Positions 8,545 through 64,000 of a stretch of DNA of 64,000 bases are shown here, one piece after another. The translations under genes and the position numbers were made by a program. How positions within the stretch are numbered: position 1 is the stretch's first letter; every line of letters begins with the position of its first letter. The stretch spans positions 1,248,001 through 1,312,000 of the forward strand of contig CP084166.1 in the NCBI GenBank assembly GCA_021513695.1. Reading direction: 5' to 3'. The stretch comes from Candidatus Heimdallarchaeum aukensis (GTDB lineage: Archaea; Asgardarchaeota; Heimdallarchaeia; Heimdallarchaeales; Heimdallarchaeaceae). The notes beneath the pieces were generated by a model, which worked only from the letters and a program-made list of their open reading frames with translations, did no database searches and was not told where the DNA came from.

Positions 8545-9456
8545 ATGAACAAAGAGCTGATCGTCAAAAGAAAAAATGTTCCAGTAAGTATTATTGGCTT
8601 AGAATATTCTGGTAAAACGACATTCCTTAACTGGCTGATTAAACAGCGATTTACTAGACCTAAACCTACTGTAGGTTATAACTTTGAAGTTCTTGAAGTT
8701 GCCAACATGCACATTAACATTTTTGATCTTTCTGGTCATGAAAAGTTTAGAGAAAATATTTGGAAAAACTTTGTTCAATCAAGTGTGGGTATAATCTTTT
8801 TTGTTGATTCTTCTGATAAAAATAAGCTTAAAAAATCAGCAGAGTGGTTCTGGAAAGTTATTAATGAGTGGTTACAAGAGATATATTCTGAATATGCTGT
8901 CTTGTTCATAGCCAACAAAGCAGATCTAAAAAATTCTTTGGATTTGGAAACAATAATAAAAACTTTTGACTTGTATAAAATGTCAAAGTATTCTAATATT
9001 TCTTTTCAAGTTTTTAAGACTTCAATAAAAGAAGAACTTAATATACAGATAGCTTTTCAATGGTTGGTAAACAAACTAAATTCCATTACAAAAAACCAAC
9101 ATGTAGACATTCATGCCTTAATTATCTCTGATAAATTTGCAAACACTTTATACTCATATGATCCTCATAACATTTCCTCTGACCATGAGTTATTATCTGG
9201 CTTTGTCAATGCAATTAGTAGTTTTAGCAACGAATTATTGGGTTATGAAAATCTCAAACTAGTTAGAATTGGTAAATATTATGTCCTTATTTCTCAAGAA
9301 CCTGATTATTCAGTTGCTATTTTTTCACAAAGTGAATCAAATCTCCCTGAAGCAAGAAGAGTAATCTATAACATACACAGAAAAATAAAAGAGGTACAAA
9401 AGAAGATACTTACTACAAAAGATTATCAAGAGATTGTCGAACAATTTATTTCTTAA
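8545..9456 (+). CDS. Arf/Sar1-family small GTPase fused to a C-terminal roadblock/longin-like domain
   Basis: G1 GLEYSGKTT, switch I PTVGYNFE, G3 FDLSGHEKFR (His in place of the catalytic Gln, as in Sar1/SR-beta), G4 ANKADL. The C-terminal ~120 aa show an alternating hydrophobic alpha/beta pattern (HALIISDKFANTLYSY ... KLVRIGKYYVLISQEPDYSVAIF) typical of roadblock/LC7. Confidence 0.75.
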   Translation: MNKELIVKRKNVPVSIIGLEYSGKTTFLNWLIKQRFTRPKPTVGYNFEVLEVANMHINIFDLSGHEKFRENIWKNFVQSSVGIIFFVDSSDKNKLKKSAEWFWKVINEWLQEIYSEYAVLFIANKADLKNSLDLETIIKTFDLYKMSKYSNISFQVFKTSIKEELNIQIAFQWLVNKLNSITKNQHVDIHALIISDKFANTLYSYDPHNISSDHELLSGFVNAISSFSNELLGYENLKLVRIGKYYVLISQEPDYSVAIFSQSESNLPEARRVIYNIHRKIKEVQKKILTTKDYQEIVEQFIS

Positions 9457-11721: not shown

Positions 11722-14700
11722 TCACCTTTTTTTCTTGTGATCTGGGCAAACGAAAACCTCTTCTGTTTTAAATAATCCTTTTTTGGTCACTTTAATAGCA
11801 TGTTTAGAACAAATGACTTTTCCACAGACATCACAATAGATGATATCATTGTCGCAAACTACATTGTTACAGAACGAACATTGTTTAACATGCTCTGTTG
11901 ACACAACCTCTTTACAGACAGAACATACTGCTGCATGTTTATTACATATCACATCTCCGCTAATTGAACAATATATAGTATGATTTGCACAAAGTGTTCG
12001 ACCACAAACTTCACAATCGTTTGATATTGACACTAATTGCATTTTAGGGGTTTTCTTTTCATAACAAGAATCACATAAGATGCTTATACTGGTTCCCAAA
12101 GTTGATTCAGCTATTCCTCTGATAAGTAATTCGTGACCTTTTTCATTAACTATATTTATTTCTGCTATAGAAACAGGAATGTATATTATTGCCGCATAGA
12201 TGTCTTGGATTTCATTTTGATTCGGAATGCTAAATGATTTTTTCTTGACCAATTTATCAAGATCGTCAAGTACCTCGACTTTTGTTTGAGATTTAATTTT
12301 TCTGTCTAGTTCTTTAACAATTTCCACATCTTTTTCTATTTCAGAAGTATAATTTTTTATAACTTGAGGTCCATATTGTAAAGTTTCAACTGCCTTTTTG
12401 TAACGCTTCACATCTGCGTCTCTTTTATATTTGTACTTATTTGTTACAATTGGTTTTAGTGTTGCATAAATGCTCTTTGCTTCCTCAATCTGAGCTTGAA
12501 ACTTTCTTACTTTGTCTCTTTTTTCAATCATCTTTGCAAAGTATTCATCTCTTTGTTTAGTTAGCTGTTTAATCCATGAATCGATTTTGTCCTTATATTT
12601 CTCTTCTATTTTTACTAACGAATCTTCGATATCTCGCTTCCATTCATCTTCATACATGCTTTTATCCATCCATAGTACATCCTGGAATGATTCAAGAATG
12701 GCTCTTGGTTTTCGTTGAACTTCTATAGTCTGGATGTTCGCAGATGGAGGTGCTATCAAGCTTCCAAGGTTTTTAAGAGGAAGAATAGAAAGGAGTTCTT
12801 CAAAAACATCTTCTGCTTGAAAAGGTATACTTTCTAGTCCCCATATTTTATCTTTTGAATCAAATTCTAATTTGTCCACTAGTGGAAAAATTCTTTTGAT
12901 TGGAAAATCTAAAGTAATTTCTTCCTTAACTACTTCTTCTCCAACCTTGACTTCTATTTCTCTTTTTGCATTTATATTAAAGTCTAACAACAAAAATGGA
13001 ACATAAGCAAGTTGAAGATAGTTTGTTCCTAGGTAGCTGAATTTTTTATCACCAAAAAACTTTGATAAAAGTTCTTTCAAATCAATCTTATCATATTTAA
13101 GATATTGTTTTTTGATTGTTTTAATAGACTTACTAAGATCTATTTTCTTAAGTTTATATTCTTCTTCATATTCTAATTTTTGTTCAGTAAAATCACTTGG
13201 AGTAATGTCTGTACCTATATCAAGTGTTTCTGAAGGGACTTCTGGAAAATCATCAAGTTCTTGCAGTCTTACTTCTGTATCTAAAAGACTTTCAACTTCT
13301 GAAAATTCTTGCAATTTAGACATCTCTTTTTCGATATCATCTAAACTTAATTCTTTTTCAATATCGGAGAAGTCCAAACTATCAATATCATAGCTGTAAC
13401 CATTTACCTCTTTACAAATTGATGGTGGAGGGTTCTTGTAGAGTTTAGACACATCATCATCAGATAAAGCTTTGTGCACTGAATATAACCATCTGGTCTT
13501 GAAACGAATAGGCTTTGGATAATTATCTGGTGAGAGTAGATAAAATTCTCCTGGTTCAAAATTTGGAAGATCATCAAGAATAAATCTTGCTGTTGGATGT
13601 GATTGTATCATTTTTTCTACTGTTCTTAAATCCTGTGGAGCCATGAAACGACCAAAAAAGAATGTGGAGACCTGACCAAAAGCTTTGTAATCTACATCAC
13701 TGATATTTTGTGTCGCAACTAACATTGACACTCCATATTTTCGACCTTGCTTAAATAATAGTTGTAACCATTTTTTCGTTGGAGGATTACGAGGATAAGG
13801 TGGAATTAATCCAGCTAATTCGTCAATATAGAAAATCAGTTGTGGTTCATGGGAAGGGTTAGAAAGCATATAAGTGTATAATCTTTGAGAGATAGTAGAG
13901 ATATAGAGATTTTTCAATTTCTGCGTATTAAGTGTATTAAGATAAATAATTGAGATTCTACATTTTCCTTCATGAGAAGATGTTTTAAGCATTTGAATAT
14001 TCAATTTCGGCCCTAAATTAAAAACTAAAGACTGAGCACCAACGGTTAAGAATTTTATATTCTTCACTAAAGTTTCTTTTTCTTTCTTTTCAAGAAGAGA
14101 GCGGTAAGATTCTGGCAAATAAGCTTCATCTGTATTGATAAGGTCCATTAACATCTTAAAATCTTGAACTAAGATATTTCTTTTCATAAACTCTTCGAAG
14201 AGAGCAGTAAGATAGGCTTTTACTGCTTTACCTTTATTTGAACTTAATTTATATCCAAGTACATCAACTAAATTGGTAGCCATTCCGTCTATAGCTAGTA
14301 TTTTTTCTTCTCTATCCAGCTGAGTTGGAGGAGGAATCAATGGATTTATTGAGAGAGGAATACCCTTTTCTGAAGCTGGAGTAAAAATAACAACTTCAAT
14401 TTTTTCTTTATATTCTTCGTAAAAATCTCTATTTACACCATATTTTTCAAGAGCTTCCCATTCAGCAACCATAGAAAGGCTACTTATATCTCCTTGAGGA
14501 TCGATAATTATAGCAGGAATATTATTTCTAATTGCTTCTTCAATTACAACCTTACAGGCAACAGTTTTTCCACTTCCTGATTGACCAAAAATTGCAACAT
14601 GTTTTTTCAAAGCTTTAGTTGGTAGAGTAACTTCTTCACCTGTTTCCTTACTTTTTCCTAAAGATAATATTGGTGCACTTTTTTCGTCATTCATATTCTT

Positions 14701-14739
14701 CAATATCAATGTGTGGTTGTTATCCTTAAACCTTTCCAA
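11722..14739 (-). CDS. HerA/FtsK-superfamily (DUF87-like) ATPase with a coiled-coil middle region and a C-terminal array of Cys/His zinc-ribbon repeats
   Basis: Walker A HVAIFGQSGSGKTVA followed by AIIIDPQGD (HerA-type), Walker B IFYIDELAGL, VATQNISDV. The C-terminus carries five or more CxxC(x4-5)CxxH units (CEVCGRTLCANH, CSVCKEV, CSFCNNVVCDND, CDVCGKVICSKH). Confidence 0.65.
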   Translation of the reverse strand: MERFKDNNHTLILKNMNDEKSAPILSLGKSKETGEEVTLPTKALKKHVAIFGQSGSGKTVACKVVIEEAIRNNIPAIIIDPQGDISSLSMVAEWEALEKYGVNRDFYEEYKEKIEVVIFTPASEKGIPLSINPLIPPPTQLDREEKILAIDGMATNLVDVLGYKLSSNKGKAVKAYLTALFEEFMKRNILVQDFKMLMDLINTDEAYLPESYRSLLEKKEKETLVKNIKFLTVGAQSLVFNLGPKLNIQMLKTSSHEGKCRISIIYLNTLNTQKLKNLYISTISQRLYTYMLSNPSHEPQLIFYIDELAGLIPPYPRNPPTKKWLQLLFKQGRKYGVSMLVATQNISDVDYKAFGQVSTFFFGRFMAPQDLRTVEKMIQSHPTARFILDDLPNFEPGEFYLLSPDNYPKPIRFKTRWLYSVHKALSDDDVSKLYKNPPPSICKEVNGYSYDIDSLDFSDIEKELSLDDIEKEMSKLQEFSEVESLLDTEVRLQELDDFPEVPSETLDIGTDITPSDFTEQKLEYEEEYKLKKIDLSKSIKTIKKQYLKYDKIDLKELLSKFFGDKKFSYLGTNYLQLAYVPFLLLDFNINAKREIEVKVGEEVVKEEITLDFPIKRIFPLVDKLEFDSKDKIWGLESIPFQAEDVFEELLSILPLKNLGSLIAPPSANIQTIEVQRKPRAILESFQDVLWMDKSMYEDEWKRDIEDSLVKIEEKYKDKIDSWIKQLTKQRDEYFAKMIEKRDKVRKFQAQIEEAKSIYATLKPIVTNKYKYKRDADVKRYKKAVETLQYGPQVIKNYTSEIEKDVEIVKELDRKIKSQTKVEVLDDLDKLVKKKSFSIPNQNEIQDIYAAIIYIPVSIAEINIVNEKGHELLIRGIAESTLGTSISILCDSCYEKKTPKMQLVSISNDCEVCGRTLCANHTIYCSISGDVICNKHAAVCSVCKEVVSTEHVKQCSFCNNVVCDNDIIYCDVCGKVICSKHAIKVTKKGLFKTEEVFVCPDHKKKR

Positions 14740-14821: not shown

Positions 14822-15547
14822 TTATTTTACAATTACTTTTGATTGTACAATATGAGGGCTCACACTTTTGTTAAAACGTACAACAACGTTATTTTCTCTT
14901 GATTTACGTTTTCCATGTATGCGAGTAATTTTTCCGATTATTTCTAGATTATTTTCAGGATTAGTTACTATAGCCTTCCTACCAATATAATTTGCTAAAG
15001 GCATTTCAATGTTCAGTAATTTTACAATTATTGAATTATTTGATGATCTCCCTACTTTATCATGAACTATAGTCTGTACAACACCATATGTTTGAGAAAC
15101 AACTTTCTCTTTTTTAGGCTTTCTAGTCTTTGGTTTTTTAGTTTTAGGTTTTACTTTTGGAATAATTGGTTCCTTTTTCTTAACAGGAGTTATCTTTTCT
15201 TTCTTAGGTTTGGGCTCAGCTTTCTTCTTGGGCTCAGCTTTTGGTTCAGCTTTTGGTTTAGCTTTTGGTTTAGCTTTTGGTTTAGCTTTTGGTTCAGCTT
15301 TTGGTTTAGGTTCGGCTTTCTTCTTGGGTTCAACTTTTGCAGGAGTAGCTTTTTCACCAGCTGATTCTAGAATCTCTTTAGCTGCTCTTCTCATTTTATC
15401 AGCAGTTACTTTACCTACACCTGGGATTTCTGTTAACTCCTCAAGAGAAGCATTAGCAATTTTTTCTACAGTGTCAAATCCTCTCTTTTTTAGATCCTCT
15501 GCTTTTTTAGCACCAATCCCCGGAATATCAGTAATTTTTAGTTCCAT
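14822..15547 (-). CDS. Ribosomal protein L35Ae domain protein with an N-terminal HhH domain and K/P/A/E-rich repeat linker
   Basis: The C-terminal ~85 aa align to archaeal L35Ae (YGVV..NN.IIVK....IGRK.....IIGKITRIHG....VVVRF). The N-terminus DIPGIGAKKAEDLKKRGFDTVEKIANASLEELTEIPGVG is an HhH motif. The middle is (KPKAEP)n, encoded by 18-nt tandem DNA repeats. Confidence 0.7.
   Translation of the reverse strand: MELKITDIPGIGAKKAEDLKKRGFDTVEKIANASLEELTEIPGVGKVTADKMRRAAKEILESAGEKATPAKVEPKKKAEPKPKAEPKAKPKAKPKAKPKAEPKAEPKKKAEPKPKKEKITPVKKKEPIIPKVKPKTKKPKTRKPKKEKVVSQTYGVVQTIVHDKVGRSSNNSIIVKLLNIEMPLANYIGRKAIVTNPENNLEIIGKITRIHGKRKSRENNVVVRFNKSVSPHIVQSKVIVK
15195..15330. repeat. Coding tandem repeat (about seven 12-18-nt units, gcttttggtttagcttttggttcagc...) encoding the K/P/A/E low-complexity linker
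   Basis: Direct reading of the DNA; the repeat lies inside the 14822-15547 CDS. Confidence 0.8.
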
Positions 15548-18403: not shown

Positions 18404-19900
18404 TTACTTACCTAATAATTTTTTTGCATTAGTAATATATTTTTCTGCAGTTGCTGGGCCGATACCTTTGATTTTTACTAATTCATCTATAGATGCATTA
18501 GCAAGTTTATCTACAGTTTCAAATCCTGCTTCTTTTAACAATTCAGCTTTTGACTCTCCGATTCCGGGGACATCCACAAGAGAAAACTGTGATACTTCAT
18601 TTGATTCTTCATCAATTTTCATTGGAGTTGGAATTTCTGAATCAATGGTTTGTTTAGGTTTTGATACTTTATCTAGTTGATTTTGAGTAGGCTTTTTAAT
18701 TGTAAGAATCTTTTCTTGGTGTGGTGGAGTTTCTTTAGTTAGTAACTTCTCTTTTGTTTCGTCTTTTTTCTTTTTGAGCACTTCACTTGGTCTTAGCAAT
18801 GTATGTTCTTTCTTTTCATCTTGAGCAACACCTACAGTTCTTGAGACTACAGGAATTGTTTCTCTTTTTCTTAAATACTCTGAAGGCTTAAGTAATCTTT
18901 CTGAAGGAGCATCATCTTCTCTTACGTCGATTTCAAACATTTTACGTTCTTTATCAAAAATTGTCTCTTTCTCTTTTACTACTTCACTTGGTTTCAAAAG
19001 ATTTTTATCTGGAGGAACACGTTTACTTTCTTCTCTTTTTAATGGGGGTAACACTTGAACTTTTGGAGATTTTGTAGGTCCTCTATCAAGAATCTCACTG
19101 GGTTTGGTTAATTTATCGACTTGTGGTTCAAATCTTTTTTTTGGTAGGGGTAGAACGTTTTCATGAACAACAGGTTCAACTTTTTTGTCTTTAGGTTCAG
19201 AACTAGTTTCAATTTTTCTAATATCCTTAAAACTTCCAGCAGGCTGCAACTTCCTTACGGGGGCAGTTTCTTTTTGTTCAATAGGAGTGGGAATAACTTT
19301 TGCTTCACGGATTGGAACACCAGTAGACTTTAACCTCGCTCGGACATCAGCAGCAGTTTCTCCTAAAGAGTAATCTTTTTCTTTTCTAATTACAGATGGT
19401 TCAGACTTTGATTCAACAACAGGCTCATGATAAACAACTTTAGCTTCCCTAACAGGAACACCAGGAGATGACAATAGACTTCTATAGCTTGAAGGCTTTT
19501 CAGCAAGAGAAGGTTTTACTGGTTCATCATAAACTACTTTGGCCTCTCTTATTTTATGACCAGTCCGTTTTAGAGCAACACCTGTATTTAGAGGAAGTAA
19601 TTCTTCTTCTAATTTATCCTCATTTATATCTTGAATCCCAAAATCACTTAAGAATTCTGAAAACCAAAAGGAAAATCTTCTGAAATTTAGTTGACCAGCA
19701 ATAGTTCCTTCCCAAAAATTATAACACATCTTTGCTAATTGATCCAATGAACTAAATGGACGAGTTTCTATTGCATGTTTCCCATCGAAAAAATAAACAG
19801 TCCCACTTATTGTGGGTGAAAAAGTTGTTGATTTTGGTTCTAGAGCTACACCATATCTTGTAGAACCAATCAATCTTTTAGGTCTTTGCGGAATAGACAT
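18404..19900 (-). CDS. Repetitive Lys/Glu/Pro-rich protein with C-terminal HhH domain
   Basis: Three G(V/H)(P/K)IREAKVVY repeats and four L(L/T)KPSE(V/I/Y)L repeats. C-terminus VDVPGIGESKAELLKEAGFETVDKLANASIDELVKIKGIGPATAEK is HhH2. Confidence 0.5.
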   Translation of the reverse strand: MSIPQRPKRLIGSTRYGVALEPKSTTFSPTISGTVYFFDGKHAIETRPFSSLDQLAKMCYNFWEGTIAGQLNFRRFSFWFSEFLSDFGIQDINEDKLEEELLPLNTGVALKRTGHKIREAKVVYDEPVKPSLAEKPSSYRSLLSSPGVPVREAKVVYHEPVVESKSEPSVIRKEKDYSLGETAADVRARLKSTGVPIREAKVIPTPIEQKETAPVRKLQPAGSFKDIRKIETSSEPKDKKVEPVVHENVLPLPKKRFEPQVDKLTKPSEILDRGPTKSPKVQVLPPLKREESKRVPPDKNLLKPSEVVKEKETIFDKERKMFEIDVREDDAPSERLLKPSEYLRKRETIPVVSRTVGVAQDEKKEHTLLRPSEVLKKKKDETKEKLLTKETPPHQEKILTIKKPTQNQLDKVSKPKQTIDSEIPTPMKIDEESNEVSQFSLVDVPGIGESKAELLKEAGFETVDKLANASIDELVKIKGIGPATAEKYITNAKKLLGK

Positions 19901-60395: not shown

Positions 60396-61061
60396 ATGAA
60401 CCCTATTTCAATTTATCATTTTAAGCAAAATTTATCATTTAATAATTTAACAACAACAAAAGGGAAAGTGACCAAAGTGCCACATGATGCAGATTACTTC
60501 TATGATAAAGCAAAAAAACAAGGTTATCGTTCAAGAGCTTCTTATAAACTCTTGCAAATACATGAGAAATTTCATATTTTCAAAAAAAATCAGATAGTTG
60601 TCGATCTTGGCGCATCTCCAGGAGGATGGACTCAAGTTGCATCAGAAAAAGTAGGCAATAATGGTTTAGTTATTGCAATAGATAAAGCCTATATTCCTCC
60701 TTTAAATCTAAAAAACGTGGAAATTTTACAGATGGATATAATGAATGAAATAATAAGTGAATACTTGAAAGACAGATATGGGTTGGTAGATGTTTTATTA
60801 AGTGATTGTGCGCCTAATGTAAGCGGAAAATGGTCTCTTGACCATTCAATTCAAATTATGCTCGCAGAAAGAGCACTAAGAATAGCTGAAGATATCCTGA
60901 AAGACGAAGGTTGGATAGTTGTCAAAGTTTTTCAAGGAGATCAATTTGCTAATTTTATCTCTTATGCAAAAAAAGTCTTCACTACAGTAAAATTATTCAA
61001 ACCACAAGCTTCAAGAAAGAAAAGCGCAGAAATTTATCTGGTTGCAAATACTAAAAGCTAA
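60396..61061 (+). CDS. rlmE: Ribosomal RNA large subunit methyltransferase E (FtsJ/RlmE)
   Basis: GYRSRASYKL, VVDLGASPGGWTQVA, LSDCAPNVSG. Confidence 0.85.
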   Translation: MNPISIYHFKQNLSFNNLTTTKGKVTKVPHDADYFYDKAKKQGYRSRASYKLLQIHEKFHIFKKNQIVVDLGASPGGWTQVASEKVGNNGLVIAIDKAYIPPLNLKNVEILQMDIMNEIISEYLKDRYGLVDVLLSDCAPNVSGKWSLDHSIQIMLAERALRIAEDILKDEGWIVVKVFQGDQFANFISYAKKVFTTVKLFKPQASRKKSAEIYLVANTKS

Positions 61062-61081
61062 AGACAAAGAGAGATATAAAT

Positions 61082-62263
61082 ATGAATAAGGAATTATGGG
61101 TTGAAATTAAAGAGGGAAAAACATCTTTCTTTCTAAAGAAAGATTCTGAAACTATCTATGATGCTTCTGTTTTTTACAACCCTAAAATGTCTATAAATAG
61201 AGATTTAGCTCTTTTGCATCTTTATACGATTGGAAATATAACAAAAAAAGGATTAATCATTATTGACCCTTTTGCAGGCTCAGGAATTAGAAGCTTTAGG
61301 ATAATTAATGAGCTTCCTAAAGAATATGTTAAGAAAATAATAATTTCAGATATAAGCGACAGAGCAATTAAGAATGTGAAATTAAATATTGAAAAGTTAT
61401 TCAATGACAAAAGAATTGTTGTTCATCGTGAAGATGCATTTAACATTATAGCTAAACAAATTTTAGATAAAGAAAATATTGATGTTATTGATCTTGACCC
61501 ATTTGGGACACCTATTTCATTTATTGATATAGCTGTTAGAGCTTTGGTAAAAAAAAGCGGATATTTGTTTTTAACTGCAACAGATCATCAAGTTTTGTGC
61601 GGTAAAGAGAAATCTACTTGTTTAAGAGAATATAACAGCAATTCAACAAATAATTATCTGTGTCATGAAATAGCTTTAAGGATTCTAATTTACAATATTT
61701 TGACAAGTTCTGGACGAATTGGTGCGTATGCTGAACCTATACTAGCTCTGCAATTTGAACATTTTTTCAGAATTCACGTAAGAATTGAAAAAGGAAAAAA
61801 AAGAGCAAATGAACAACATAAGGAGATAGGTTTTGTTTATGTTTGTGCTTATTGTAGTTTTTTTGAAACAGAGAGATTAAAAGAAAAAAAGAATTTACAA
61901 AAATGTCCAACATGTAACAAAGAGCTAGAAAAAGTAGGGCCTTTATGGCTAGGGCCTTTAGGAAATAAGAAAAAGGTAGGGGATCTTCTCAACTTTTTAG
62001 ATGAAATTGAATTTGAGCATAATAACAAGAAAAAAATTAATTTAATGTTATCAACATTCAAAGAAGAGATTGAACTCCCTCCAATGTTCTACAACTTACC
62101 TTTTTTATACAAAAAATATAAGAAAAATGGTGTTTCTCCTAATGAAATGATAAACAGATTAGAAAAAAGAGGATATAAGACCACAAGAACAATCTTCGAT
62201 TTTCAATCAATAAGAACAGAGGCACCATATTACGTTGTACATAATGAAATAAAGAAATTATAA
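61082..62263 (+). CDS. trm1: tRNA (guanine26-N2)-dimethyltransferase Trm1
   Basis: FYNPKMSINRDLALL, IIDPFAGSGIRSFR, C-terminal CAYC ... CPTC zinc finger. Confidence 0.85.
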   Translation: MNKELWVEIKEGKTSFFLKKDSETIYDASVFYNPKMSINRDLALLHLYTIGNITKKGLIIIDPFAGSGIRSFRIINELPKEYVKKIIISDISDRAIKNVKLNIEKLFNDKRIVVHREDAFNIIAKQILDKENIDVIDLDPFGTPISFIDIAVRALVKKSGYLFLTATDHQVLCGKEKSTCLREYNSNSTNNYLCHEIALRILIYNILTSSGRIGAYAEPILALQFEHFFRIHVRIEKGKKRANEQHKEIGFVYVCAYCSFFETERLKEKKNLQKCPTCNKELEKVGPLWLGPLGNKKKVGDLLNFLDEIEFEHNNKKKINLMLSTFKEEIELPPMFYNLPFLYKKYKKNGVSPNEMINRLEKRGYKTTRTIFDFQSIRTEAPYYVVHNEIKKL

Positions 62264-62265
62264 GG

Positions 62266-62943
62266 GTGATATTAATTCAAAAAATAATAGTAGGAATAGA
62301 TGAAGCTGGACGAGGACCAGTGCTAGGACCACTAGTCATTTGCGCCTATGCAATTGAAAAAAAAGATTTAGATCAATTACAAATTTTAGGGGCAAAAGAT
62401 TCAAAGATGCTATCTAAAAGCAAGAGAACAGATCTATATCAGAAATTAATTGATATTGCTGTTGATTATAAGACTATCCACCTATCTGCATCGGAAATTG
62501 ATGAAATGAGAAAAAATACAAGTTTAAATGATATTGAACAAAAAATTATGATAAAAGCTGTATTAGGATTAAAGGTTAAACCTTCAGAAATATACATTGA
62601 TGCAGCAGATGTAAAAGAAGAAAGGTTTGGTCTACTATTTAAGAACTATTTTCCAAAAGCTAAAATAGTCTCAAAACATGGAGCAGATAAAACCTTTCCT
62701 GTTGTTTCTGCCGCATCTATTATAGCTAAAGTAGAACGAGATAGAGAAATTGAAAAAATAAAAGAAGAAACAGGAGTTAACATTGGTTCAGGCTATCCTT
62801 CGGATCCTAAAACAAAGAAATTCTTAAATGAATATTATAAGAAACATAAAAAATTCCCTTCTTTTGCTAGAGAATCATGGGATACATGCAAAAAAATAAA
62901 AGAAAAGGATGTACAACAAGCTAAAATAAACGAATACCTTTAG
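62266..62943 (+). CDS. rnhB: Ribonuclease HII
   Basis: IVGIDEAGRGPVLGPLVICA N-terminal catalytic motif. Confidence 0.85.
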   Translation: MILIQKIIVGIDEAGRGPVLGPLVICAYAIEKKDLDQLQILGAKDSKMLSKSKRTDLYQKLIDIAVDYKTIHLSASEIDEMRKNTSLNDIEQKIMIKAVLGLKVKPSEIYIDAADVKEERFGLLFKNYFPKAKIVSKHGADKTFPVVSAASIIAKVERDREIEKIKEETGVNIGSGYPSDPKTKKFLNEYYKKHKKFPSFARESWDTCKKIKEKDVQQAKINEYL

Positions 62944-62954
62944 AGATGTGATTA

Positions 62955-63590
62955 ATGGACGAAAAAAATTTAGAAGAATCCTCTATTGAAGATTTTTGGA
63001 AGAAAAGTTCTCCGACCAGAGATTTAATAATTGTTTTCACTGTTATTTACCTGATTCTTACAATATTATCACTAACTTTTTTTGTAGACACAGGATATAC
63101 TGGCATTGTCAAAGTAATTTCAATTAGTCGAATCGTCTTAGAATGGACAGGACAGTATAATTTGTTAGTATTTAAAGGGTACATTTACGAGCTATTTAGC
63201 GCAATTTTTGTTCATGCGAATTTATTACATTTATTATCTAATCTCTTATTCTTCCTAATTTATGGATTAAGAGCAGATGAGAGACTATATACAAAACATT
63301 TTTACATCATATTTATTTTCTCTGCATTATTAGGAAATCTATTTACTCTAGTAGTTTATCCAGTAAATACTGTTTCTTGTGGAGCTTCAGGAGGTGTTTT
63401 TGGGTTACTTGGAGCTGACTTGATTCTGGCTTATGAAGAGGATGAAAACAGATCAATTTGGACTTATCTGGCTTCAGGTGCTATATTTTTATTTATATCT
63501 GCAGGAGTAAATGTGAATAGTTTAGCGCACGGTATTGGACTAGTTTCTGGAATAATATTAACCCTTTTTATTATTAAAAAGAGAAAGTGA
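62955..63590 (+). CDS. Rhomboid family intramembrane serine protease
   Basis: GASGGVFGLLGA (GxSG in TM4) and AHGIGLVSG (His in TM6); six TM helices. Confidence 0.75.
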   Translation: MDEKNLEESSIEDFWKKSSPTRDLIIVFTVIYLILTILSLTFFVDTGYTGIVKVISISRIVLEWTGQYNLLVFKGYIYELFSAIFVHANLLHLLSNLLFFLIYGLRADERLYTKHFYIIFIFSALLGNLFTLVVYPVNTVSCGASGGVFGLLGADLILAYEEDENRSIWTYLASGAIFLFISAGVNVNSLAHGIGLVSGIILTLFIIKKRK

Positions 63591-63695
63591 AAGAAAGCAG
63601 TTTAATTTTAAATAAACAAGCCAAAGTAGATTTAAATAGCCTAGTACAAACAGAAGATTTATTTGTTTAAATTGGATTAGAAACTAAGATTCAAG

Positions 63696-64000
63696 ATGAT
63701 TCCGTACCATGTACAAGTTTTGTTAACTAATGTACCAAACATCGAAGAAGTGTCAATCAAAGAACTTATCGAATTAGATGTGAAAAAAATTAAAGGTATT
63801 GGTGACAAATATGCAAAGGTCTTGTACAGAAAAGGAATCAAGAAAGTAAAAGATTTAGCAAAGTTAGATTCTCAAGAAATAGATTTACCCGAAAAAATAG
63901 TTACTAAATGGATAGTTGCTGCAAGAATTATCGTTAATTCACAAAAAGTTCGCAGAACTGGAAAAATTATTTTCTCAGGTCTATCTCAAGCTGGAAAAAC
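63696..64000 (+). CDS. HhH domain fused to an Arf-like small GTPase. Partial: the 3' end lies beyond the window.
   Basis: IKGIGDKYAKVLYRKGIKKVKDLAKLD HhH, then GKIIFSGLSQAGK (start of an Arf-like G1) at the window edge. Confidence 0.5.
   Translation, partial: MIPYHVQVLLTNVPNIEEVSIKELIELDVKKIKGIGDKYAKVLYRKGIKKVKDLAKLDSQEIDLPEKIVTKWIVAARIIVNSQKVRRTGKIIFSGLSQAGK

Follow-up and report, generated by a model that had tools for sequence, protein, structure and literature searches.

A Rag/Gtr1-like GTPase of Asgard archaea with an N-terminal domain of the helix-hairpin-helix class

Eukaryotic Rag GTPases have no N-terminal domain and are obligate heterodimers that dock on Ragulator or EGO and signal to TORC1. 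Asgard archaea encode Rag-like GTPases as well, and these are under study as potential precursors of the Rag/TORC1 switch by which eukaryotes sense nutrients. In a cultured Lokiarchaeon, Rag-like proteins make up the second largest class of GTPases; they are often annotated as Arf and occur as fusions to roadblock, longin and '?' domains of unknown function (Tran et al.; PMC10933270). Neither the binding partners of Asgard Rag-like GTPases nor the processes that they regulate are known (PMC10933270). Separate RagGtr and ArfL groups of Asgard GTPases have been described (bioRxiv 10.1101/2024.02.28.582541; PMC11914678), and an older 'Arf-like' Asgard group has been placed near Rag, outside the Arf clade (PMC11914678). 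Among proteins of known structure, the closest to the gene considered here are LokiRagO (8yl2), a homotetrameric RagA-like small GTPase of Lokiarchaeota, and LokiRagM (8zla, 9m28); searches of the literature with '8YL2' and 'LokiRagO' returned no paper describing the 8yl2 and 8zla entries. In bacteria, the small GTPase MglA works with the roadblock protein MglB (PMC9481161; PMC10933270).

Here we show that a partial gene at the end of the window (the whole stretch of DNA that was analysed, 64,000 nucleotides) is one open reading frame (ORF), we assign its domains, and we find its architecture widely distributed in Asgard archaea.

63696..64000, + strand: partial gene, truncated at the window end after 101 codons and 2 nt; when complete, it has 386 codons and encodes a three-domain Rag/Gtr1-like GTPase

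In our estimation, this partial ORF is likely to be the 5' third of a Heimdallarchaeum-like Asgard gene for a three-domain GTPase switch of the Rag/Gtr1 type. The layout comprises an N-domain with two helix-hairpin-helix (HhH) units, denoted (HhH)2 (aa ~20-82), a Rag-type G domain (aa ~88-260) and a predicted roadblock domain (aa ~261-386). We regard the gene not as a new system but as an ordinary member of the known Asgard Rag-like GTPases to which an ancient HhH-derived N-domain has been added.

How does this protein compare with the described systems? LokiRagO is its best match both in sequence (1.5e-37) and in structure, LokiRagM (8zla) is the second-best match in sequence (5e-22), and the alignment brings out FFHKFDP and T(S/T)IY as shared motifs. 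LokiRagO, however, aligns only from residue 57 of the window protein and residue 11 of its own, and so has no HhH domain; LokiRagM 8zla aligns from residue 87 of the window protein. With eukaryotic RagA-D and Gtr1/2 (PF04670) the window protein shares a Pfam match, HKxD as G4 motif, TSI(W/Y) and the succession of G domain and roadblock, but identity amounts to just 15-20% and the Rags have no counterpart to its N-terminal domain. Moreover, Rag/Gtr proteins work as pairs, whereas the window gene was found without an operon partner (a second Rag-like, roadblock, longin or DENN gene) beside it in five loci. Arf and ArfR proteins resemble the window protein in G1 and G3, and the Pfam Arf family scores over threshold, but there is no amphipathic N-helix and no Gly2, G4 is HKFD and not NKxD, and two domains are extra. 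As with MglA/MglB, a small GTPase is combined with a roadblock fold; the roadblock of MglB, however, is a separate GAP protein, whereas that of the window protein is fused in cis, and MglA was absent from the top matches in the PDB sequence search and in Foldseek. For the N-domain itself, the closest parallels are the N-terminal domain of RadA/Rad51, the thumb of Y-family polymerases and the N-terminus of haloarchaeal L32e, which are likewise helical with two HhH units. Unlike (HhH)2/HHH_5 domains, it has lost the glycines of hairpin 2, and its hairpin 1 is often degenerate across the subfamily. In the accessible literature, a search for Asgard, Rag-like and helix-hairpin-helix found no published description of this N-domain.

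One ORF encodes a three-domain Rag-type GTPase

The first-pass annotation, made from the letters of the window, had proposed that an HhH module runs into a P-loop in a single ORF at 63696, and the translation bears this out. The ORF starts at the ATG at 63696, which is the first start codon past an in-frame stop and the start also used by orthologs, and extends over 101 residues (MIPYHVQVLLTNVPNIEEVSIKELIELDVKKIKGIGDKYAKVLYRKGIKKVKDLAKLDSQEIDLPEKIVTKWIVAARIIVNSQKVRRTGKIIFSGLSQAGK) without a stop up to the window end. Within it, aa 29-62 read VKKIKGIGDKYAKVLYRKGIKKVKDLAKLDSQEI and aa 89-101 read GKIIFSGLSQAGK; a single frame holds both the HhH hairpin, KGIGDKYAKVL, and the beginning of the P-loop, GLSQAGK. 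Extension of the contig gave the remainder of the gene. A public contig (L014, 9253-10413), retrieved by exact-protein look-up using the upstream rhomboid, is 100% identical to window positions 63400-64000 and brings the ORF to 386 codons, with no stop before the GTPase domain; the ortholog of Candidatus Heimdallarchaeum endolithica (contig L001) is also a single ORF of 386 codons, and in homologs down to 28% identity, too, the layout is the same and a single ORF of 386-397 aa runs through without interruption. The gene is thus a genuine single-ORF fusion of an HhH-class module to a small GTPase. When the 101-aa fragment served as query in a word-indexed search for homologs, nothing matched; this marks a limit of sensitivity and not an absence, because the same database contains orthologs. 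The window has a G+C content of ~30%. Its RNase HII shares 91% identity with the enzyme of Candidatus Heimdallarchaeum endolithica PR6, which makes the source a near relative of that archaeon within the Asgard family Heimdallarchaeaceae. One public protein (P0003; 357 aa, ENA) equals another homolog (P0002) over ~325 residues and then continues in unrelated sequence; it probably stems from a chimeric or frameshifted public contig and was left out of the analyses.

63978..63998, + strand: start of the G1/P-loop GLSQAGK(T); G95, G100 and K101 are invariant in 62 relatives

The same annotation had called the GTPase Arf-like, a label that we replace: the GTPase is Rag/Gtr1-like, as judged by scores, motifs and structure. 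In the full protein, Pfam Gtr1_RagA (PF04670; 76 bits, 3.9e-21, cut-off 22) is the top small-GTPase family and ranks above Arf (PF00025; 59.7 bits, 3.2e-16), which passes its own cut-off of 22.3. This order of Pfam scores recurs in the H. endolithica ortholog, and Gtr1_RagA is matched by all 62 relatives scanned. The full sequence contains the G domain motifs GLSQAGKT (G1), DMGGQ (G3), HKFD (G4) and a G5-like TSIY. We take the first two to be Arf-like, and HKxD as G4 as well as TSI(W/Y) in place of the usual G5 to be hallmarks of Rag. HKFD and TSIY align to HKMD and TSIW of human RagA, and HKxD is found in relatives with the N-terminal extension (48/62) and without it (59/73). In the PDB sequence search that was headed by LokiRagO and LokiRagM, RagA reached 1.4e-10, and Arf1 came out at ~1e-7 with the H. 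endolithica ortholog as query.

The structural predictions point the same way. An AlphaFold2 model of the full-length protein, of moderate confidence (pLDDT 76.5, pTM 0.58), has a helical N-domain followed by a G domain and, at the C-terminus, a domain whose elements come in the order a-b-b-a-b-b-b-a, which is that of a roadblock. In Foldseek, 8yl2 is best (2.9e-20, TMt 0.80, ~305 columns over the G and C-terminal domains), followed by RagA/RagC and Gtr1/Gtr2 at ~1e-14 (TMt 0.70-0.76, again across both domains), whereas Arf proteins align to the G domain only, at ~1e-7. A Pfam scan of the C-terminal 127 residues alone gave no match; it is on the model and on the full-length structural alignments that we assign this domain to the roadblock fold. 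Assignment to the Rag type corrects the routine annotation of such proteins as 'ADP-ribosylation factor-like'. Three Arf-type paralogs in the same window behave in the reverse manner to the 63696 gene, with Arf at 3e-18 to 2e-36 and Gtr1_RagA at best 6e-4:

8545-9456, + strand: Arf-type GTPase gene (Pfam Arf 3e-32), with a C-terminal extension of 120-160 aa
27621-28640, + strand: Arf-type GTPase gene (Pfam Arf 2e-36), with a C-terminal extension of 120-160 aa
28644-29645, + strand: Arf-type GTPase gene (Pfam Arf 3e-18), with a C-terminal extension of 120-160 aa

The latter two lie on the same strand with 3 nt between them and may form an operon pair.

A diverged (HhH)2 domain at the N-terminus

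63753..63941, + strand: (HhH)2-type helical N-domain, aa ~20-82
63780..63824, + strand: first, canonical HhH hairpin VKKIKGIGDKYAKVL, aa 29-43 (from the sequence, by regex match)
63879..63935, + strand: second, degenerate HhH IDLPEKIVTKWIVAARIIV, aa 62-80; no G-h-G, with family-conserved K71, W72 and A76

Residues 1-88 match Pfam HHH_5 (PF14520) over profile positions 3-54 of 57, with 30.8 bits (4e-7) at a gathering score of 27. The 101-aa fragment scores 30.2 bits (6e-7), and within the full-length protein the match, at 26.3 bits, is borderline with respect to the gathering score of 27. Hairpin 1 reads GIG, and hairpin 2 reads D-L-P (IDLPEK...) without a glycine, so that the two-hairpin G-h-G signature is lacking. 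A model of the N-domain only is confident (pLDDT 88, pTM 0.77) and gives a compact helical fold of the SAM-like/HhH class, a class that we take to comprise both nucleic-acid binders and protein-interaction modules. The nearest families and structures are HHH_5, Ribosomal_S13, the fingers of DNA polymerase lambda, the thumb of Y-family polymerases (structural matches to those of Dpo4 and pol iota) and mitoribosomal mL85. When the N-domains of 62 relatives were compared by hhalign with the window's two other (HhH)2 modules, the alignment extended over 54 columns and both hairpins (probability 96.5%, E 7e-10), and IDLPEKIVTKWIVAARIIV fell onto the second hairpin, IPGVGKVTADKMRRAAKEI, of the module in the L35Ae-like protein described below. 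Because this profile comparison spans both hairpins, we consider the N-domain of the GTPase a complete but diverged (HhH)2 domain.

The helix that precedes strand 1, EKIVTKWIVAARIIV, was considered as an amphipathic membrane helix of the Arf kind. We rejected this reading because hhalign places the helix on the last helix of (HhH)2 and the site of W72, which is M or Y in the window's two other modules, would in our view lie in the core.

Conservation within the subfamily is uneven. Hairpin 1 retains G34 in 43/62 relatives and each of G36 and A40 in 20/62, and HHH_5 reaches E<=0.01 in only 12/62. The positions that are best conserved in the 62 relatives, L43, L54, W72 and A76, are hydrophobic or small, and we interpret them as belonging to the core. 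For the N-domain, net charge is +7 in the window protein, +8 in H. endolithica and +2 in an ortholog with 88% identity; across the 62 relatives it ranges from -13 to +11 with a mean of 0.3, and 17/62 are at -3 or lower. A basic N-domain, looked for in the net charge of these 62 relatives, was thus not found as a family trait.

Relation to the other HhH modules and distribution of the fusion

Two other genes of the window carry HhH modules:

14822..15547, - strand: 241-aa protein with (HhH)2 at aa 1-62 (15362-15547), a K/P/E-rich linker and an L35Ae/eL33-like domain at aa ~154-241 (14825-15088)
18404..19900, - strand: protein of 498 aa that has short repeats in its interior and ends in an (HhH)2 module at aa 437-498 (18407-18592)

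It had been noted earlier that an HhH motif occurs at three places, at the N-terminus of the 14822 protein, at the C-terminus of the 18404 protein and in the 63696 GTPase, and all three are indeed present. All 766 six-frame segments of the window were scanned with a hairpin regex, by phmmer with the individual modules as queries, and with an HMM built from the L35Ae-like and repeat-protein copies; exactly these three proteins emerged, and no further one. The earlier account had gone on to propose a module shuffled among three partners. Of this, the occurrence of HhH-class modules in three otherwise unrelated proteins stands, but only two of the copies are close. The modules of the L35Ae-like and the repeat protein align locally with a score of 160 (z 25.7, 2000 shuffles) and find each other by phmmer at 2e-16 to 6e-16, whereas the GTPase copy reaches scores of 58 and 45 against these two (z 6.1 and 4.1, 2000 shuffles), aligns in the first hairpin only and gives phmmer E values of 0.008-0.1. 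At the 17 fixed positions of the earlier consensus, counted by eye, the L35Ae-like copy has 16 matches, the repeat-protein copy 15 and the GTPase copy 12, the last fitting mainly in the first half; Pfam HHH_5 gives 6e-16, 1e-13 and, for the 101-aa GTPase fragment, 6e-7. Judged by these comparisons, the three modules have only superfamily ancestry in common, and the GTPase copy appears to represent a separate, old lineage.

For the subtype of the 14822 and 18404 proteins, the notion of a promiscuous module seems right. Both modules match RadA/Rad51 (~1e-6) and L32e of Haloarcula marismortui (2e-8), and the closest relatives of the 14822 module are those on L32e and S4 of Thorarchaeota and at the N-terminus of H. 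marismortui L32e. An (HhH)2 module joined through a lysine/proline-rich linker to a ribosomal protein recurs in archaea, with L35Ae-like (here), L32e and S4 as partners. The Thorarchaeota fusions (P0168, P0171) are an L32e with two tandem copies of HhH2 and an S4 with a C-terminal HhH2, and H. marismortui L32e (PDB 1jj2_X) shares the HhH2-ribosomal-protein layout. The L35Ae-like domain of the 14822 protein is itself only weakly matched, by Pfam L35Ae with 16.3 bits (0.011; cut-off 27) and by NCBIfam L35ae with 25.9 bits (7.7e-6; cut-off 85); with a profile of five orthologs, the region aa ~154-243 matched five eL33/L35Ae sequences of the PDB (E 1e-3 to 6e-3). The combination of (HhH)2, linker and L35Ae-like domain was seen in Heimdallarchaeaceae only. 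Beside this gene lies an ORF of 1005 aa (11722-14739, - strand) with a Walker A motif, GQSGSGKT, near its N-terminus and a cysteine-rich, zinc-ribbon-like C-terminus. In the 18404 protein, HhH is the sole family match. The protein has a unique N-terminal region of ~100 aa and a K/E/P-rich middle part with three copies of the repeat (I/V)REAKV(V/I) and four of L(L/T)(K/R)PSE(I/V/Y)L.

The fusion of HhH to GTPase had been thought particularly unusual. We find, on the contrary, that it is common. We built a profile from eight homologs; among 1.84 billion cluster representatives it matched 6484 at E<=0.001 and 324 at E<=1e-30. Among the best 157 of the 6484 (representatives of 50%-identity clusters), 65 have the P-loop at residue 85-125, preceded by a homologous N-terminal extension of ~90-120 aa, 76 have no extension and 16 have a different, longer one. 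The named carriers of the extension belong to five Asgard lineages, Promethearchaeota (Loki), Thor-, Odin- and Hodarchaeota and Heimdallarchaeaceae, and all are labelled 'ADP-ribosylation factor-like protein'. On a crude neighbour-joining tree of the G and roadblock parts, from which the N-domain was left out, presence of the extension requires 9 Fitch changes against 48 (minimum 38) under shuffled labels, and the N-domain has therefore mostly been inherited with the core. Thus the HhH-GTPase fusion is widespread and appears to be old, neither a rarity nor a recent shuffle, and we infer that the N-domain marks a subfamily of Rag-like GTPases as an old HhH-derived accessory domain.

Genomic context, alternative readings and possible roles

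In the window (60396-63590) and in three further contigs (L014, L016, L018), the gene belongs to the string (S8e, SRP19, Gar1) - FtsJ/RlmE - Trm1 - RNase HII - rhomboid protease - HhH-Rag-like GTPase. The order FtsJ - Trm1 - RNase HII - rhomboid - GTPase is kept in Heimdallarchaeaceae down to 42% identity, and the rhomboid gene, even where it is inverted (L018), still adjoins the GTPase gene; the order is lost in one Thorarchaeote and in a relative with 28% identity. We treat the synteny with FtsJ, Trm1, RNase HII and rhomboid as a sign of shared ancestry and not of a functional link.

Three alternatives concern the nature of the gene. That two neighbouring genes, or one gene and a frameshift, have been taken for one ORF is practically excluded: the gene is cut at the window end, and the window by itself could not rule such an artefact out, but an identical contig, and likewise homologs with as little as 28% identity, contain the ORF uninterrupted over 386-397 codons. 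An Arf-family GTPase, which would act by nucleotide-dependent insertion of an N-terminal amphipathic helix into membranes, is highly improbable. It would account for the 59.7 bits of Pfam Arf, over the gathering score, for the Arf-like appearance that we ascribe to GLSQAGKT and DMGGQ, and for the name under which the relatives are deposited. It conflicts, however, with the higher score of Gtr1_RagA and with HKFD in the place of NKxD; the protein begins MIPYH and has no Gly2, strand 1 is preceded by a folded domain of 88 residues and not by an amphipathic helix, a length of 386 aa with a roadblock after the G domain compares with a single Arf domain of ~180 aa, and Arf structures cover the G domain only (~1e-7). 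That the older 'Arf-like' Asgard group has been put beside Rag and not within the Arf clade (PMC11914678) speaks against it as well. We likewise give very little credit to a recent copying of one HhH cassette among three genes of this genome by shuffling of domains inside the lineage. In its favour, the modules of the L35Ae-like and the repeat protein are similar (score 160, z 25.7) and are separated by 3 kb on one strand, and their subtype is also fused to L32e and S4 in Thorarchaeota; the GTPase copy, however, is distant from both (z 4-6; phmmer E 0.008-0.1). The N-domains to which this copy is orthologous belong to Rag-like proteins from five Asgard lineages, and their presence follows the tree of the core; the GTPase fusion would therefore seem to be ancient.

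What might the N-domain do in the ancient Rag-type fusion that we favour? The most exciting reading is that HhH tethers the GTPase to nucleic acid, either DNA or rRNA on the ribosome, and that the switch thereby acts on chromatin or translation. We consider this doubtful. The canonical first hairpin (GIG plus A40) and the charges of +7 and +8 in the window protein and in H. endolithica would suit a tether, as would the fact that the nearest families and structures of the N-domain all bind nucleic acid; fusions to ribosomal proteins recur in the sister (HhH)2 subtype, and in Heimdallarchaeaceae the gene adjoins genes for RNA processing and translation. Yet hairpin 2 is without glycines, only 20/62 relatives retain the second glycine of hairpin 1, mean charge is 0.3 with 17/62 at -3 or lower, an ortholog at 88% identity has just +2, and the synteny is gone outside Heimdallarchaeaceae. 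Because neither the hairpin glycines nor the net charge is conserved across the subfamily, a conserved role of the N-domain in DNA tethering is unlikely, and the conservation pattern speaks against it. Binding of nucleic acid in the Heimdallarchaeum lineage itself also seems improbable to us, and still less do we expect that (HhH)2 is a working nucleic-acid- or ribosome-binding module throughout the Asgard-wide subfamily, by which a Rag-type growth or nutrient switch is coupled to chromatin or the translation apparatus. If it were true, such coupling might represent a pre-eukaryotic mode of Rag signalling in cells without lysosome, Ragulator and TORC1.

A role of the N-domain in protein contact, assembly or intramolecular regulation is more likely than conserved binding of backbone phosphates. 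We envision that the three-domain protein, by analogy with Rag/Gtr and LokiRagO, would cycle between GTP and GDP states and would pair or oligomerise via its roadblock domain, and that the N-domain is most likely there for contact with proteins or for regulation, and not as a general DNA clamp. The conservation of an HhH-derived N-domain in a large subfamily with members in at least five Asgard lineages offers a handle for binding assays, truncations and pull-downs.

Upstream of the gene, the sequence may also hold a signal for its expression.

63591..63695, + strand: intergenic region of 105 nt, putative promoter of the 63696 gene

The gene probably has a promoter of its own, because this spacer contains a block (63627-63668) that is almost invariant in the alignment with H. 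endolithica and includes TTTAAATA at 63631-63638.
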